Positions 45,996 to 54,457 of a stretch of DNA of 64,000 nt are shown here, in pieces. Every line of letters starts with the position of its first letter. Position 1 is the stretch's first letter. This stretch comes from Picochlorum sp. SENEW3 (taxonomy: Eukaryota). The translations under genes were made by a program, and so were the position numbers. The DNA lies in NCBI GenBank assembly GCA_034226945.1, contig CP120462.1, positions 868,001 to 932,000 on the forward strand, given 5' to 3'. Below the pieces are notes generated by a model, which saw nothing but the letters and a program-made list of their open reading frames with translations, did no database searches and was not told where the DNA came from.

Positions 45996-46091
45996 GTCAT
46001 CGTGGTGAAGTGGTATCACGTCACGTTGTGGGATCAACCCCACGAGAGGTTCAATACCGTGAAGTCTCGAGTTCAATTCTCGGCGATGACA
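45996..46091 (+). tRNA. trnH: tRNA-His(GUG) with 25-nt canonical intron (46032-46056)
   Basis: Acceptor GTCATCG/CGATGAC, anticodon stem TCACG/CGTGA, GTG at 46028-46030, T-loop TTCAATT, oligo-T at about 46106-46111. Confidence 0.92.
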
Positions 46092-46165
46092 CGAAATGAA
46101 AATTCTTTTTTGCCTCCAACAAACAGAACGGAAAGGGGGATTCTTTTCCAATGCAGGGATATGGT

Positions 46166-46181
46166 GGTGTTGAATAACACC
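46166..46181 (-). terminator. Histone mRNA 3' stem-loop (H2B)
   Basis: GGTGTT-ATTC-AACACC followed by ACCA. Confidence 0.9.
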
Positions 46182-46229
46182 AGTTGATTGTTTTTTTTGT
46201 TCAGAGTACTATGCTCATCAGCAATGCGC

Positions 46230-47346: not shown

Positions 47347-47390
47347 ATCCTGCTGCTGCTTGCATACAACAACAATTCAAACAATCAACT

Positions 47391-47406
47391 GGTGTTATTC
47401 AACACC
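47391..47406 (+). terminator. Histone mRNA 3' stem-loop (H2A)
   Basis: GGTGTT-ATTC-AACACC followed by ACCA. Confidence 0.9.
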
Positions 47407-47626
47407 ACCATACTATGATGGAAATACTGTCATCTCTTAGAGATGATCTCTGCAATACTGTGGATGCTCACTTGGAGCAACACCACAAAAGAAAGGAAAA
47501 CATACCATACATACACTTCATGTACATCTGAATATTTTACAACAAGGTTTCTGCTATCATGACGAGTGAGTCATCCATTCATTCAGGTGTGTCAAAAAGC
47601 ACAAGTTTCCAAAAATAATACATGGT

Positions 47627-47642
47627 GGTGTTGAATAACACC
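47627..47642 (-). terminator. Histone mRNA 3' stem-loop (H3)
   Basis: GGTGTT-ATTC-AACACC followed by ACCA. Confidence 0.9.
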
Positions 47643-47741
47643 AGTATGAATATAATTTGTCAAAGTCAGTAGTCTCTCGCCGGCATAACCAGCAGCAGCA
47701 GACTGTCAATCTCCACCTCCAGAAGAAAAGAAGAGAAAAGC

Positions 47742-48979: not shown

Positions 48980-50735
48980 TCACCTCCGCCTTGGCTGAGA
49001 TGAAAGAGCATTCATCTCGTATTCGTCAATGGAGTACCAAGTGTAGTCCCCTTGATCCAAGAACTTTCTGGAGGCAAATTTTCTTTTCCTGTCCGAGTTC
49101 AGATTGCAGAGCCTGTTGGCCACTGCATTGCCTGCATACGCGTTGCGACGAGCATGGAGCAGAGAAACACATCGATCCAACATGCCTTGCAGTCCCTCGC
49201 CATTTGATCCATTGACCTCTTCTATGTCCTGCTCCTCTGCACTTTGAGGAGCTTGCTCGTGCTCTTTCTCGTCTACGGCACCAGCCGTGTTCCAGTACAC
49301 AACAGGCCGCGTCACTCTCCTGCGGAATGGATCAAGCATGGTGTCTCCTCCAGTTGCATCATCGTTGTTTTGCTGTTCTGCCATCATGGTTGTTTTGAAA
49401 TTGATGCTAGCATTCTTCTTATTCAGTTCGGCAAGAGAATCTTTCTTCCTCCCGGCCTCTATGCTTGCTTGTATTTCTTGTATTTGACTGTCGAGTTGAT
49501 CAACCAGGACAGTATCTCCTCTCTGCTTGGCTGCATCGCGTTCCCTCTCCAATCGAGCTTTTTCCAAGGCTGCATTTCTCCTCGACCCCGCCCCTTTCAG
49601 TCGTTTTTCCTCAATCAATCTAGCGACATCTGTTTCGGTGAACACATAGTTCTCGGCTTCCACCAACCTGGCCCGGGCCCTCTCCACCTGGCTTCTAGTT
49701 ATTTGACCTACGCCATTTTCTTCGCATTGCTGGTGATACCTGTAAAATTCTTGCTCTGTGATTGAAGAATTCGATACCTGGGCCAGAGGCCATATCTTCT
49801 CGGAGTTTCCTCGCACCACTCGTAGCCAAATAGATGTCTTCTCTCCTTTGGGACCAAAAGGATACGGGCTTTTCCAAGGTGGGGCAGATTGATTCAGGTA
49901 CTTGTAGTAACCTGGTTCCTTCTCCACAAGACCGGCGACGCGAGCCGCCATGTACTGAACGACTGGTCGCCCATCGCTCCCGTACATTGTGTGCCCATCT
50001 GGAGCCTTTTTGTTGCCTGCCGCAAGGCGAACAATACAACCTGGCAAGGTTTTCTCAAAGAAAGGCTTGTTGTACCATTCCTCTAATTTATACCGCCGCA
50101 CTTGAATTCCTTTCACCTCCTGGTATGAAGCCTCTTCGTCGTCGTCGTGCTGCTCCACAATATCGTCCTCGGACATGATCTCATCCTCGTCCCCACCCAA
50201 AGACACAGGTTCTGCCTCAACCTCTTCCTCGTCTGGTTCCTCAAAGACAGCCTTCTCGCCCCTCGCCTTCCTCTCTCTCGCCGCTTTCAGTTCTTCAATT
50301 GCAGACTTCTTCTTATTCTCCTCTCGCACCTCCCTCCCCGATCGCCTGCGGCCACCCGCTGCCTTCAAAAGCTCTTCGCGTTGGCGTTTCTGCTGCTGTC
50401 TCTCGGCGCGTTCCGCCAACTCCATCTCTCTTTCCAACTCGGTCATTCTCGCCAGCCTTTCCTCATCCAAAAATTCATCATCGTCGTCAGATATATCCAC
50501 GTCGTCATTGTCCATCATGGTACTCCTACACGACCAGACAAAACACTAAAATCCTTTCCAACTCATCACCGAGGCACGGTGCATATCCAACGAACCTGCC
50601 ATCGTCATTCACGTCTGAGATGTCATCTTCTGAGATATCCGAAAGTCCTCCGGTATTGTTTCCTGCCGCACCGGGACCAGACTGCCCAGCAACCTGCAGG
50701 AGCTCGCTGTCCAGCTGCTCCTGTTTGTTCGCCAT
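48980..50735 (-). CDS. RTF1: PAF1 complex subunit RTF1/VIP5 (Plus-3 domain), 2 exons
   Basis: LARMTELEREMELAERAE, IQVRRYKLEEWYNKPFFEKTLPGCIVR, VSNSSITEQEF, DPFRRRVTRP; intron about 50527-50594. Confidence 0.9.
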
Positions 50736-50775: not shown

Positions 50776-52773
50776 CTAGCGCTGAAAGAAGCTGTCGTCA
50801 ACTCTCTCGAACAGCAAGAGGAATTTCTTGGAGGCCTCCACATGAAACACGAATCCAAGCTCGGCCCCCCTCGTGATGGGATTGCTCTTCGTGAGGGTTA
50901 AAAGTTCTCCATCAACCCATTTAGGGGAGCTGTACCCTTCTCTAGCTACTCGTCCCTGTCCTGGATACCTGCTTTGAACCCCATACTCGATTGGGTACAC
51001 CCCAGATGGAGACTGCTTGTTCTCCTTCCCAACGCGTGCTTTGAATGAAATTTCACCGGCTGGAACGTTGACATCCCCTGTGATTTTGACACCTTCAACC
51101 CACTCTTGTCCATCGATCATGGTCCGTCGTACTTGAATCACCTCTGGCCCATGAGGCCCAAATGATCCTAGGTAAATACCTTGGAAAGCATCGGTGAAGA
51201 CAGGCGGCAGTTCCAATCGCTCGTATGATACTGTCCCCTCTAACCCCGCTATGGCTGGAGTCATGAGGTCCTGTTTCACCTGCGCGTCGTCCACCACACT
51301 AATTGTGGCATCGGTTGCTGAGAGAGCATTCTTTACCATGTTTTCAATCTCTTTCAGGCTGTCACTGGATTGACTGCCCAATTCATTCGGCTCGTCCCCT
51401 GTAGGTTGTTGGCTAATGATTTCTTTTTGTTTTCTTTCGTCAATTTTAAGGGCAAATTTGTCTCGTCCTTGCCATAGAAGTTCAGCTGGGACACGCTGCG
51501 ACAGGTTCATCATGCTCATTTCACTCAAAGCAGACGAGAGATCATGAGTGTCATCATGATCAATTTCTCTGATAATATCCTCCTCTGATAAACTCTCACT
51601 CGAAGCAATCATCTCATCTTCCTCTTCATCCCCTTCATCATGACTAAGCGAATTCACCAAGTCGTCAATGGTGTGGATACCATCATCGTCATCGTCATCA
51701 CTTTCCTCCTGCTGTTCATCTTTCTCCGGGTTCGCGAGATTTATCCTCACAAAATCAGTTCCATCTGCATTATTTCCACGCTCTACACTAATGACATTTG
51801 AGGTGTTGTTTACCTGGGCTGAAATCAGAGCTGACAAATCATCCACAGGATTTTGCAACCCTGTGACGCGCAGTGCCGGGGAATTAAACACTGATGCCTG
51901 ATGATCCCAACCTCCATCGTCATTGTCTCTATAGAAAACTTCAAACACTGGAGATCCCTCCTCTTCCTCTTCAATAGGATCGTCTTGCTCAATCAAGTTC
52001 ATGATGTCAGCAACATTTCCCTGAGCCATTACATCCTCCATGGCACCTGCACTCTCACTGGACGACCATCCCACGGCCCTAGCCAAACTATATCCCGTAA
52101 ATGCGTGGGCAACATATCTACTGAAATCCCGAGTCACCACAACGAGGTGTCCTTGGGCATCGTCATCTCCCTCTTTGCCCACCCACCAGCCCAACAATCC
52201 AATGCCACCTTCATCTCTCAAAGCTGCGGCTTCGCCGTATTCCTCTTGTTGGATTGCATGTTGGAATTTCTTCGCTATTTTCAAGACGACGTCTTTCGCT
52301 TCGATAGCAGCCTGTTCCTTCTTCAGCTCAGAAGCTTTCCTGTAGTCCTCCACATCCACTGCCTCATCAATCTCCTCATCTATGGCATTCAGATCGCGCA
52401 CCATCTGATCCATGGAAGAGAAATAGTCATTCCAGCTTGTCCAAGGGTCCCTTGAATCGTACAATGCATTCGATTTACCCTTGATATTGCACTGTGATGA
52501 GGAAGACGAAGGGACACCTTCCACCATGTTGATCTCTAAATCCCTCTTCGAGTCCACGACTCGCCTCTTTGTGACCCATGTCTTCCCTTCTTCTCCGTCC
52601 GGAGATGATGATCTAGCAGCACAGGACACCATCAGATGAGAGGTACACGCCCGGGAAAGTGCAGACCAAGGTCTACAGCCTATCCTGCCCTGGACTGGTT
52701 GCTGGTCCCCGGTCGCCCGGGAGGTCGAAGCAGCAGCCCCACCTCTCGCGCTGGACCAATGCAGGGAAGCCAT
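50776..52773 (-). CDS. EX1: EXECUTER 1/2-like plastid protein (UVR + DUF3506)
   Basis: AVDVEDYRKASELK, EEYGEAAALRDEGGIGLLGWWVG, DAFQGIYLGSFGPHGPEV, KITGDVNVPAGEISF; transit peptide. Confidence 0.9.
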   Translation of the reverse strand: MASLHWSSARGGAAASTSRATGDQQPVQGRIGCRPWSALSRACTSHLMVSCAARSSSPDGEEGKTWVTKRRVVDSKRDLEINMVEGVPSSSSSQCNIKGKSNALYDSRDPWTSWNDYFSSMDQMVRDLNAIDEEIDEAVDVEDYRKASELKKEQAAIEAKDVVLKIAKKFQHAIQQEEYGEAAALRDEGGIGLLGWWVGKEGDDDAQGHLVVVTRDFSRYVAHAFTGYSLARAVGWSSSESAGAMEDVMAQGNVADIMNLIEQDDPIEEEEEGSPVFEVFYRDNDDGGWDHQASVFNSPALRVTGLQNPVDDLSALISAQVNNTSNVISVERGNNADGTDFVRINLANPEKDEQQEESDDDDDDGIHTIDDLVNSLSHDEGDEEEDEMIASSESLSEEDIIREIDHDDTHDLSSALSEMSMMNLSQRVPAELLWQGRDKFALKIDERKQKEIISQQPTGDEPNELGSQSSDSLKEIENMVKNALSATDATISVVDDAQVKQDLMTPAIAGLEGTVSYERLELPPVFTDAFQGIYLGSFGPHGPEVIQVRRTMIDGQEWVEGVKITGDVNVPAGEISFKARVGKENKQSPSGVYPIEYGVQSRYPGQGRVAREGYSSPKWVDGELLTLTKSNPITRGAELGFVFHVEASKKFLLLFERVDDSFFQR

Positions 52774-53191
52774 ATACTGTGTAATTTCTAGGCTAGTATA
52801 TTCCTAGCTGACGCCACGCGATCAAATCGAGTGACACAATGCAAACGAACCTCCTGCACCAAGGTCGGAAACATACCATCAGGCTTTTGTTACGTTCATG
52901 AGGACGGCAAACAAGTCTTTGTTTTTCAATATCATTGAATCTGCCACTCCGATGGATAAAGCCCGGGCGAGTTGCGTCAGAAACACGTTCACATGCCACA
53001 ACCACTGGCGTACCTGTGCGAATGACGAGCTTCAAAATTGGATTAAATGCTTACGAGTAAAAGAAAACACGAGTTAGCGACTGCCCTAGGACGTTCGATT
53101 GGAATACATCATAGGCATCTTGGAATATTCTCCCGAATCCGTGTCCAAAGAACAAGGCATATGTACGCTCGGCGGTGGCGGCTCTCCCCTC

Positions 53192-53370
53192 AGATCCTTC
53201 CACTTCTTTCTAGTGATTGGTTGTCAAAATCATGATCTAGAAGGAGGTTCTGACGGGGATTGATGAGTGGTTTGTACAGGCGTGCGTTGATTCGTGGCTG
53301 CCTGAAGGGAGAGCTCGCCCCACCTACCTTGTTACGAAAGAGCTTCCTTGTGAATACCGATCTGACCCCT
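53192..53370 (+). ncRNA. SNORD13: U13/snR45-type box C/D snoRNA (guide for 18S rRNA helix-45 ac4C)
   Basis: 5' GATCCTTCC (53193-53201) is complementary to 18S GGAAGGAUC. Box C TGATGA at 53261-53266. ACCTTGTTACGA (53326-53337) is complementary to 18S UCGUAACAAGGU. Box D CTGA at 53362-53365; GGGG/CCCC closing stem. Confidence 0.85.
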
Positions 53371-53402
53371 ACTTTTTGTTCATTTATTTTCTTGTTGTTC
53401 AT

Positions 53403-53490
53403 GTCAGAATGACCCCAGGCGGTCCTGGGTGCGGACTTCAAATCCGTAGGCAATGTGATGTTGCAGAGGCTCAACTCCTCCTTTCTGACG
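53403..53490 (+). tRNA. trnU: tRNA-Sec (UCA)
   Basis: Acceptor GTCAGAATG/CTTTCTGAC, long D-stem CCCAGG/CCTGGG, TGCGGA-CTTCAAA-TCCGTA (UCA at 53438-53440), long variable arm, 4-bp T-stem GAGG/CCTC, G discriminator; eukaryotic 9/4 fold. Confidence 0.92.
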
Positions 53491-54414
53491 TTAAGAAGCA
53501 GGCAAAGAATTCACCATGAGTTCCAGAGGCTGCTTACGTCCTTCTAAGAACGCCTGCAATGGCGTTTGTCTCGAGACGGACCTGTATCCAAGTCTCTTGT
53601 ACAACGCATATGCCGCAGTATTGGCTGGGTCCACGTGGAGCGCAATCCAGCTGCAACCCCACTCTAACGCACGTGCTTCCGCTGCTTTAATCAGTTTTGA
53701 ACCGATTCCGCTGCGTCGGAGACTCGAGCAGACCGCCAGATTGCTGATGTATGCTGTCTTTGGCCTGGGGCTTATGTTGAACAATTGAGAGTTGAAGAAG
53801 GCAGGCCATGTGAACCTTGGGGGGATGAATGCCATATGGGTATCCACCACCACTGCACCGACAATGTTTTTATCACTGGCCAATCTCGTGCTATACTTCC
53901 GATTGCCCTTCATGTTGGGAGCCCCCATCATCCACGTGAGCACCTTCTCCACCACAGCACTCGAATCAACCGACGGCATCTCCGACGGGGCATTCAGCAT
54001 GTCCACAGCCGTCATACAAGAGAACGACGGAGGGGAAGCAGTCTCTCCCTGATGGAGAGCCAGAACTCTATCCATACGAAGCACTGTATCCCAGAACCGA
54101 CCTTGGTCTCCGTAAAAAGATTTGCAGTGCACTTCGGCTATCTTTTCGTAATCGGACGCAGTCGCGTCGTGAATTACGTATCTCTCGACCTCGATCCGAT
54201 CCTGTATGCGCGTAGAAGCCTTTGTCACCCTGTTGGTCGCACGACAACCTACACTCCAAGGTGCGAGAGCACTTCGACATCGCCTGTGGCCACGACATCC
54301 GGGTGGCGTGTGTGAGCCAACGAGCAAACTATTATGTGGATGGAAGAATATCGGATGATATTGATGCGCACGTGAGGGCTGCAGAGAGTACCCATCGCCT
54401 ATGTGTACCCACAT
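53491..54414 (-). CDS. GNAT acetyltransferase, probably plastid-targeted
   Basis: AYISNLAVCSSLRRSGIGSKLIKAAE, LHVDPANTAAYALYKRLGY. Confidence 0.9.
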   Translation of the reverse strand: MWVHIGDGYSLQPSRAHQYHPIFFHPHNSLLVGSHTPPGCRGHRRCRSALAPWSVGCRATNRVTKASTRIQDRIEVERYVIHDATASDYEKIAEVHCKSFYGDQGRFWDTVLRMDRVLALHQGETASPPSFSCMTAVDMLNAPSEMPSVDSSAVVEKVLTWMMGAPNMKGNRKYSTRLASDKNIVGAVVVDTHMAFIPPRFTWPAFFNSQLFNISPRPKTAYISNLAVCSSLRRSGIGSKLIKAAEARALEWGCSWIALHVDPANTAAYALYKRLGYRSVSRQTPLQAFLEGRKQPLELMVNSLPAS

Positions 54415-54457
54415 TTTTTTTTCCTACACTCGTAATTCAATTCAATTCAATCATACT

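Follow-up and report, generated by a model that had tools for sequence, protein, structure and literature searches.

Do a U13-type snoRNA and a tRNA-Sec gene that lie in tandem on one strand of Picochlorum sp. SENEW3 share a transcript, or are they independent genes that happen to be neighbors? The initial annotation proposed a dicistronic unit from which RNase P cleavage releases both RNAs, and it was right about the order, the common strand, and the identities of the two genes. They occur within a 64,000-nucleotide stretch of contig CP120462.1 (the window), which is chlorophyte nuclear DNA with long, mostly uninterrupted open reading frames (ORFs) and a G+C content of 44-51%. A 4-alpha-glucanotransferase encoded in the window has 100% identity to a marine microbial-eukaryote transcriptome protein, and its nearest named relatives are trebouxiophytes at no more than 62%. 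Both RNA genes are on the plus strand inside an intergenic stretch of approximately 690 bp between two minus-strand genes, an ORF with a Cyclin_D1_bind domain on the left (50776-52803) and a GNAT acetyltransferase ORF on the right (53491-54423) that is convergent with tRNA-Sec. The GNAT stop codon (53493-91) abuts the discriminator base of tRNA-Sec, so the GNAT 3' UTR must cross the tRNA in antisense. A Plus-3 gene (48980-50545) lies 2.9 kb upstream of tRNA-Sec and points away from it. Further to the left, the model of the histone 3' UTR stem-loop has three matches, at 46140-46186 (-), 47386-47430 (+), and 47601-47647 (-), that stay below threshold with 25.5-29.2 bits (cut-off 34) and hint at a cluster of histone genes whose 3' ends are stem-loops.

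The tRNA-Sec gene is real. ARAGORN calls an 88-nt tRNA with anticodon TCA at 53403-53490 (+), and Rfam model RF01852 matches 53403-53489 with 72.1 bits against a cut-off of 47 in a gathering-threshold scan of the whole window. The RNA has the 9-bp acceptor and 4-bp T stems, 6-bp D stem, long variable arm, UCA anticodon, and discriminator G of its class. For comparison, metagenome contigs were scanned with a eukaryotic tRNA-Sec pattern of 19 specified bases (anticodon arm), which returned at least 118 stretches, those designated L081-L118 with flanks of 300 nt only. ARAGORN finds a tRNA-Sec at the pattern in 91 of the 118 listed stretches (77 distinct), and the others are truncated tRNAs, tRNAs that ARAGORN does not call, or chance matches. 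The B-box region of the window gene, GGCTCAACTCC at 53468-78 (+), had been described as degenerate, and it does depart from the commonest forms, GGTTCGATTC or GGTTCAATTC, which are present in 54 of the 77 distinct listed loci. The unusual acceptor and T arm to which it belongs recur in 3 of the 77 among the matches listed. Positions -60 to -34 relative to tRNA-Sec, the place for upstream promoter elements, are occupied by the 3' half of U13.

The upstream gene is a U13-type box C/D snoRNA of approximately 178 nt (53192-53369, +). Model RF00304 (snoZ279/R105/R108) matches its C/D core (53255-53369, +) over the full model length with 40.5 bits (E = 1.4e-6 on 901 nt, permissive scan), below the cut-off of 54. 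The corresponding RNA of a related metagenome contig, L003, is also sub-threshold at 40.7 bits. A curated-threshold Rfam scan of the whole window recovers nothing except tRNA-Sec, neither U13 nor an 18S gene, and the U13 call is based on the sub-threshold match together with motifs and covariation and not on a curated-threshold hit. A C box (TGATGA, 53261-66, +) and a D box (CTGA, 53362-65, +) are joined by a terminal stem, GGGG at 53255-58 with CCCC at 53366-69 (+); all three are evident in the sequence and in the RF00304 alignment. The RNA also has two boxes with predicted complementarity to the 18S rRNA 3' end, a hallmark of U13. Box A, GATCCTTCC at 53193-201 (+), is identical in L003 and is the complement of GGAAGGATC, which we take to be the universal motif at the 18S 3' terminus. 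Box B, ACCTTGTTACGA at 53326-37 (+), lies in a loop closed by stems 53306-15 and 53341-48. The 9-mer of box A and the 12-mer of box B are exact complements of universal primer-site motifs at the 18S 3' end and putative complements of this alga's own 18S. At up to 1 mismatch, the box B 12-mer is single copy in the window. The box A 9-mer occurs twice against 0.79 copies expected; it is therefore not rare alone, and only its position approximately 60 nt before the C box counts.

Between box A and the C box, the 5' domain (53192-53254, +) contains a 12-bp hairpin (53202-53248, +) that is present in both the minimum-energy fold and the centroid. Because these 47 nt are inserted here, the RNA reaches its length of approximately 178 nt. 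The domain is conserved in L003. Its proposed 5' end, placed by sequence, is the start at 53192 given in the initial annotation, which fits box A. An RNA-library contig (X11, 53203-53283) covers the hairpin and C box, in keeping with a 5' extension and an internal C box. It is joined at 53203 to what we take to be an Illumina adapter, and this junction was rejected as the U13 5' end, since an RNA that started there would lack the conserved box A. Fold energies are not unusual for either 53186-53372 (z = -1.25) or 53186-53495 (z = -0.86).

Members of RF00304 include snoR105, snoR108, and snoR146, which are described as plant U13 orthologues (PMC2875012). According to the same account, plant U13 is a capped RNA of approximately 130 nt with about 30 nt ahead of its C box and complementarity to the 18S 3' end in two regions, and it is encoded by single genes with a USE and TATA in the Pol II configuration (PMC2875012). 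U13 and yeast snR45 are reported to pair on each side of the helix 45 cytidine that is acetylated and to be required for its acetylation by NAT10/Kre33 (PMC5464676). As these sources describe plant U13, vertebrate U13, and snR45, the algal RNA would resemble them in its internal C box and 5' extension, in a putative pair of guide boxes matching the 18S 3' end around helix 45, and in being a stand-alone gene with conserved upstream sequence. Unlike the Arabidopsis RNA of PMC2875012, it measures approximately 178 nt instead of 130 and places the C box approximately 69 nt from the proposed 5' end because of the 47-nt hairpin. It also differs in having a T5 run 3 nt after its 3' stem and a sub-threshold Rfam score.

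Conservation was assessed against L003, whose GNAT orthologue is 83% identical over 171 residues and ends at the same stop position; by this measure L003 is from a sister species of the window's alga. The two sequences differ at 32 of 113 columns (28%) in 53008-53120, at 1 of 30 in the block 53121-50, at 9 of 22 (41%) in the TATA-like stretch 53151-72, and at 2 of 17 in 53173-89. In the U13 5' domain, 4 of 66 columns differ (53190-53254), 2 of them at 53190 just before the proposed start, and the C/D core has 3 differences in 115 (2.6%), including one compensatory pair. The spacer has 4 in 33, tRNA-Sec 0 in 88, and the GNAT coding sequence 51 in 380 (13.4%). The compensatory pair is 53312/53344, which is A-U in the window and U-A in L003 and closes the box B loop in the Rfam structure. 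In the 5' hairpin, a G to A change at 53243 in L003 converts a U.G pair to U-A. An X12 strain variant with T to C at 53344 breaks the 53312/53344 pair and counts against covariation. Taken together, these changes show that selection acts on the U13-like stretch as a structured RNA.

The block at 53121-50 (+) is a candidate snRNA-type upstream element (USE-like), with a promoter role predicted from conservation between two sequences only. Within it, TCCCGAATCC (53131-40, +) spans approximately -61 to -52 relative to where U13 is proposed to start. This block does not have the seed-plant USE consensus, and it bears only a loose similarity to algal USE words such as ACCCATAA (PMC8287931). With up to 3 mismatches allowed, the USE-like 13-mer matches the window 26 times (18.9 expected); a second copy of the conserved block was not found there. 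Only the original 13-mer is exact, and a promoter family built on it was not definable from the window. A TATA-like word, CATATGTA (53158-53165, +), is found at -34 to -27 from 53192 within the poorly conserved stretch, where 2 nt are deleted in the X6 variant and likewise in the X12 variant. In the green algae analyzed in PMC8287931, TATA-containing snRNA-type promoters are assigned to Pol III and TATA-less ones to Pol II. If Pol III transcribes U13, then the T5 run downstream terminates it. With Pol II, as for the Arabidopsis genes, T5 is no barrier and the polymerase would enter the tRNA gene, which is why a dicistron keeps a small chance.

The two genes are separated by a T-rich spacer (53370-53402, +; runs T5, T3, T4, T2, T2) of 33 nt in the window, close to the 'about 32 nt' first estimated, and 31 nt in L003. 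Its T5 run (53373-77), already recognized in the initial annotation as counter-evidence, begins 3 nt past the U13 3' stem, and its T4 run is at 53387-90. T5 is kept in L003 despite changed neighbors and is T4 in an X6 variant, so a run of at least T4 occurs in all three variants seen. The claim that no oligo-T follows tRNA-Sec also holds, as there is no T4 for 204 nt after the gene, the first being at 53695-98 (+205), and none occurs in the 400 nt downstream of the L003 tRNA-Sec. A dicistron might be expected to have no terminator between its genes and one after the second; here T5 lies between them and the first T4 past tRNA-Sec is at +205. The single ordinary tRNA gene of the window, tRNA-His (GTG, 25-nt intron; 45996-46092, +), has T6 at 46105-10, 13 nt after its end. 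Oligo-T terminators are therefore used in this genome, as judged from one gene, and tRNA-Sec departs from this usage. The tRNA-His gene scores 52.2 bits with the Rfam tRNA model in a local scan and is called by ARAGORN in intron mode; default ARAGORN and the whole-window gathering scan do not see it.

Termination varies widely among other tRNA-Sec genes. For the 73 distinct listed loci with at least 100 nt downstream, the first T4 is found within 25 nt in 46, at 26-50 nt in 7, and at 51-100 nt in 8, and 12 have none within 100 nt. A TATA-like word is present at -42 to -18 in 26 of 72 listed metagenomic tRNA-Sec loci, as scored with a simple pattern. The promoter and terminator layouts of tRNA-Sec look diverse across eukaryotes. 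Lack of a terminator is a trait common to the relatives of the window gene and to a sixth of the other listed tRNA-Sec loci.

The spacer may also belong to the 3' end of the GNAT gene. Its minus strand contains AATAAA (53388-83) at +103 from the GNAT stop codon, and TGTAA was not found within 520 nt downstream of GNAT. This word is enriched behind stop codons in the window: among 30 long ORFs, 10 have TGTAA within 50 nt past the stop codon, which suggests that ORFs in this DNA have 3' UTRs of very short length and use a poly(A) signal of the chlorophyte type.

The linkage of U13 to tRNA-Sec has a narrow reach. When both strands of the 118 listed stretches are searched for box B with up to 2 mismatches allowed, nine matches result. 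Only the L003 match is exact, just upstream of the tRNA, and on its strand; each of the remaining eight has 2 mismatches and is located at another place or on the opposite strand. Rfam identifies a U13-like RNA in L003 and none in L014, L098, L045, or L001. The L014/L098 and L045 loci have the same unusual GGCTCAACTCC T arm as the window tRNA-Sec, and each has an orthologue of the Plus-3 gene (43% and 39% identical, respectively) that converges on its tRNA. By these features they are true yet distant relatives. The sequence upstream of their tRNA-Sec genes (300 nt in L014/L098 and 141 nt in L045) is without U13, a TATA-like word, or a shared motif. As for conservation of the linkage, which bears directly on the dicistron proposed at the outset, the pair is kept in the sister species L003 and in the X1, X6, and X12 strain variants and is absent in the distant L014/L098 and L045. 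U13 is missing upstream in two of the three other listed members of this unusual-T-arm lineage. Since the linkage is found only in the window and L003 among the matches listed, the juxtaposition would have arisen, or survived, only within the genus. The tRNAs of the relatives are near-identical internally and presumably expressed without U13, from which we infer that the window tRNA can be expressed alone. The two RNAs, their conservation, and the extent of their linkage are observed features of these sequences.

Other arrangements are found beside tRNA-Sec in this sample. In L014, the stretch approximately 30-150 nt after tRNA-Sec contains, in this order on the tRNA strand, a word that resembles the plant USE (CCCACATCG), a C/D-like RNA whose TGATGA ... 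CTGA motifs are flanked by a 5-bp complement, and T6. This T6 is the first oligo-T after the tRNA, and the C/D-like RNA lies between tRNA-Sec and the Plus-3 gene. Rfam names nothing here, and a relaxed Rfam search of L014 and L045 likewise found nothing named beside the tRNA. L014 could contain a tRNA-first tRNA-snoRNA unit. L001, from another metagenomic eukaryote, has T4 directly after tRNA-Sec (1161-1247, -), which is convergent with a 5S rRNA gene (856-973, +; 102.9 bits) 188 nt away.

The RNA data are assembled unstranded contigs, and such contigs cannot show that two genes share one transcript. They come from RNA libraries X6 and X11 of one study and X12 of another; the X1 run is probably DNA. 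In X6, an oligo-dT metatranscriptome, one contig (53041-53500) bridges U13, the spacer, and tRNA-Sec and ends 10 nt past the tRNA. Its left end is 150 nt ahead of the start proposed for U13, and it may equally be antisense read-through from GNAT, or DNA. X11, from the same study with another selection, has a contig at 53399-53660 in addition to the one at 53203-53283, and X12 has contigs at 53008-53395 and 53378-53615. The contigs that start at 53378 (X12) and 53399 (X11) continue into the GNAT coding sequence. Across the two studies, RNA contigs break in the spacer where X1, the probable DNA run, reads through (53152-53588), which is a weak hint of an RNA boundary there. The coverage gaps at 53284-53398 in X11 and beyond 53500 in X6, as well as contig depths (73 versus approximately 3), were discounted as evidence.

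The same contigs reveal a discontinuity farther upstream. At 53008, approximately 185 nt upstream of U13, X1 and X12 contigs and L003 all depart leftward from the window and are mutually similar there, and one more X1 contig departs from it at 53152. Even with 3 mismatches allowed, the unmatched X1/X12 sequence left of 53008 was not found elsewhere in the window. We read 53008 as a probable breakpoint of a strain rearrangement. A splice at this position was rejected because L003 diverges at the same point.

With moderate confidence, we favor two independent genes of a compact genome that were juxtaposed recently, within one genus. The first would produce a U13-type box C/D snoRNA of approximately 178 nt whose two guide boxes flank helix 45 when paired with the 18S 3' end. 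It would be expressed from its own snRNA-type promoter, with the conserved block at approximately -70 to -43, and its transcripts would end in the T-rich spacer. The tRNA-Sec gene would be expressed independently, because its closest relatives share the internal sequence without U13 or a shared upstream motif, and its transcript would probably have a long 3' trailer that is removed by RNase Z. The juxtaposition would have arisen within the genus, and the spacer may both end U13 transcripts and serve the convergent mRNA on the other strand. For this scheme, we infer the promoter use, the acting polymerase, and the points where transcription ends. Several observations stand against it. The X6 contig bridges both genes, tRNA-Sec is without T4 for 204 nt, and its B-box region is unusual. 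The linkage-free relatives are distant (39-43% protein identity), so the linkage is conserved within the genus. Finally, the TATA-like stretch is unconserved, and recruitment of Pol II to U13 would carry the polymerase past T5 into the tRNA.

Much of the same evidence could be accommodated by a snoRNA-first dicistron, which we consider unlikely, as the evidence leans against co-transcription. Here, the U13 promoter, probably with Pol II, would generate one precursor through the tRNA that would be a main source of tRNA-Sec. Its processing would consist of RNase P cleavage at 53403, RNase Z cleavage after 53490, and trimming of the 33-nt U13 tail back to the snoRNP. The oligo-dT contig of X6 and the unusual B-box region are compatible with such a unit, as is the absence of oligo-T after tRNA-Sec in both the window and L003 compared with T6 at +13 for tRNA-His. 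So is the weak, variable TATA-like stretch, in that TATA-less snRNA-type promoters of green algae go with Pol II in the species covered by PMC8287931 and Arabidopsis U13 genes are described with a Pol II promoter configuration (PMC2875012). The tRNA-Sec of Trypanosoma brucei is a reported precedent for synthesis by Pol II (PMC2943599). However, the X6 contig is unstranded, begins 150 nt before U13, and could be antisense GNAT read-through or DNA, and the contigs of two other RNA libraries (X11 and X12) break in the spacer. Relatives that have the same tRNA-Sec without U13 upstream must express it otherwise, and the lack of T4 within 100 nt is not special, as it is found in 12 of the 73 distinct listed loci. 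A run of at least T4 has been kept directly after U13, and U13 has a conserved upstream block of its own. The more specific proposal, that the tRNA-Sec of this genus is without a working promoter and terminator of its own and is made largely from a U13-promoter transcript, probably by Pol II, with release by RNase P and RNase Z, is rather unlikely.

Functional coupling of the two genes without a shared transcript is quite doubtful. In such an arrangement, TFIIIC/TFIIIB on tRNA-Sec and over the spacer would stop or help to end U13 transcription or keep chromatin open, and the spacer would also be the GNAT polyadenylation region. The tight spacing of 33 nt (31 nt in L003) fits this possibility. 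The minus-strand AATAAA at +103 from the GNAT stop, the lack of TGTAA within 520 nt of GNAT compared with its presence in 10 of 30 ORFs, and the RNA contigs that extend from 53378 and 53399 into the GNAT coding sequence are compatible with the polyadenylation role. Small-RNA genes that depend on tRNA genes in trypanosomatids and a U3-tRNA linkage in Euglena provide parallels, as described in PMC2784804. However, factor binding is purely hypothetical here, and the known cases have a divergent or convergent tRNA gene and not a tandem one downstream. In addition, the U13 orthologues described in PMC2875012 are stand-alone genes, and the linkage is absent in L014 and L045.

That the U13-like stretch is non-functional, a chance or decayed C/D-like sequence beside a normal tRNA-Sec, would suit its Rfam score of 40.5 against a cut-off of 54, the two copies of GATCCTTCC in the window, and its ordinary fold energy (z = -1.25 for 53186-53372), but this is highly improbable given the full-model match with C box, D box, and terminal stem, the unique box B 12-mer, a core that differs from L003 by 2.6% versus 13.4% for GNAT coding sequence and includes a compensatory pair, and the X11 contig over the 5' domain and C box.

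Plant dicistronic tRNA-snoRNA genes, reportedly described by Kruszka et al. in 2003, have the tRNA first. The algal locus is similar in that its C/D snoRNA and tRNA genes are only tens of bases apart on one strand. It differs in its reversed order, in having oligo-T between the genes and none after the second, and in the conserved upstream block of its snoRNA, and it is known here from the genes and unstranded contigs. The tRNA-Sec of Trypanosoma brucei is described as transcribed by Pol II and embedded in a long protein-coding polycistron (PMC2943599). The algal gene likewise has no evident terminator of its own and is located directly behind another transcription unit, but this upstream unit is a single snoRNA gene. 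Vertebrate tRNA-Sec, which PMC2943599 classes as a type-3 (U6-like) Pol III gene, is the same type of tRNA with a similar single-copy character. In contrast to the vertebrate gene, the region from -60 to -34 is filled here by the 3' half of U13.

These results place a U13-type acetylation-guide snoRNA with an enlarged 5' domain in a chlorophyte alga, for which we claim no priority. They also define a compact locus of less than 500 bp in which polymerase choice and termination are testable together for a snoRNA and tRNA-Sec, the only tRNA known as an exception to the usual Pol III rules. If the dicistron were true, it would mean more than one escape of tRNA-Sec from Pol III, with this alga as a second independent non-Pol III case after trypanosomes, and it would establish a new order for snoRNA/tRNA dicistrons. 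If it is false, the locus still offers a clear case of one short spacer that is common to a snoRNA, a tRNA, and a convergent mRNA.
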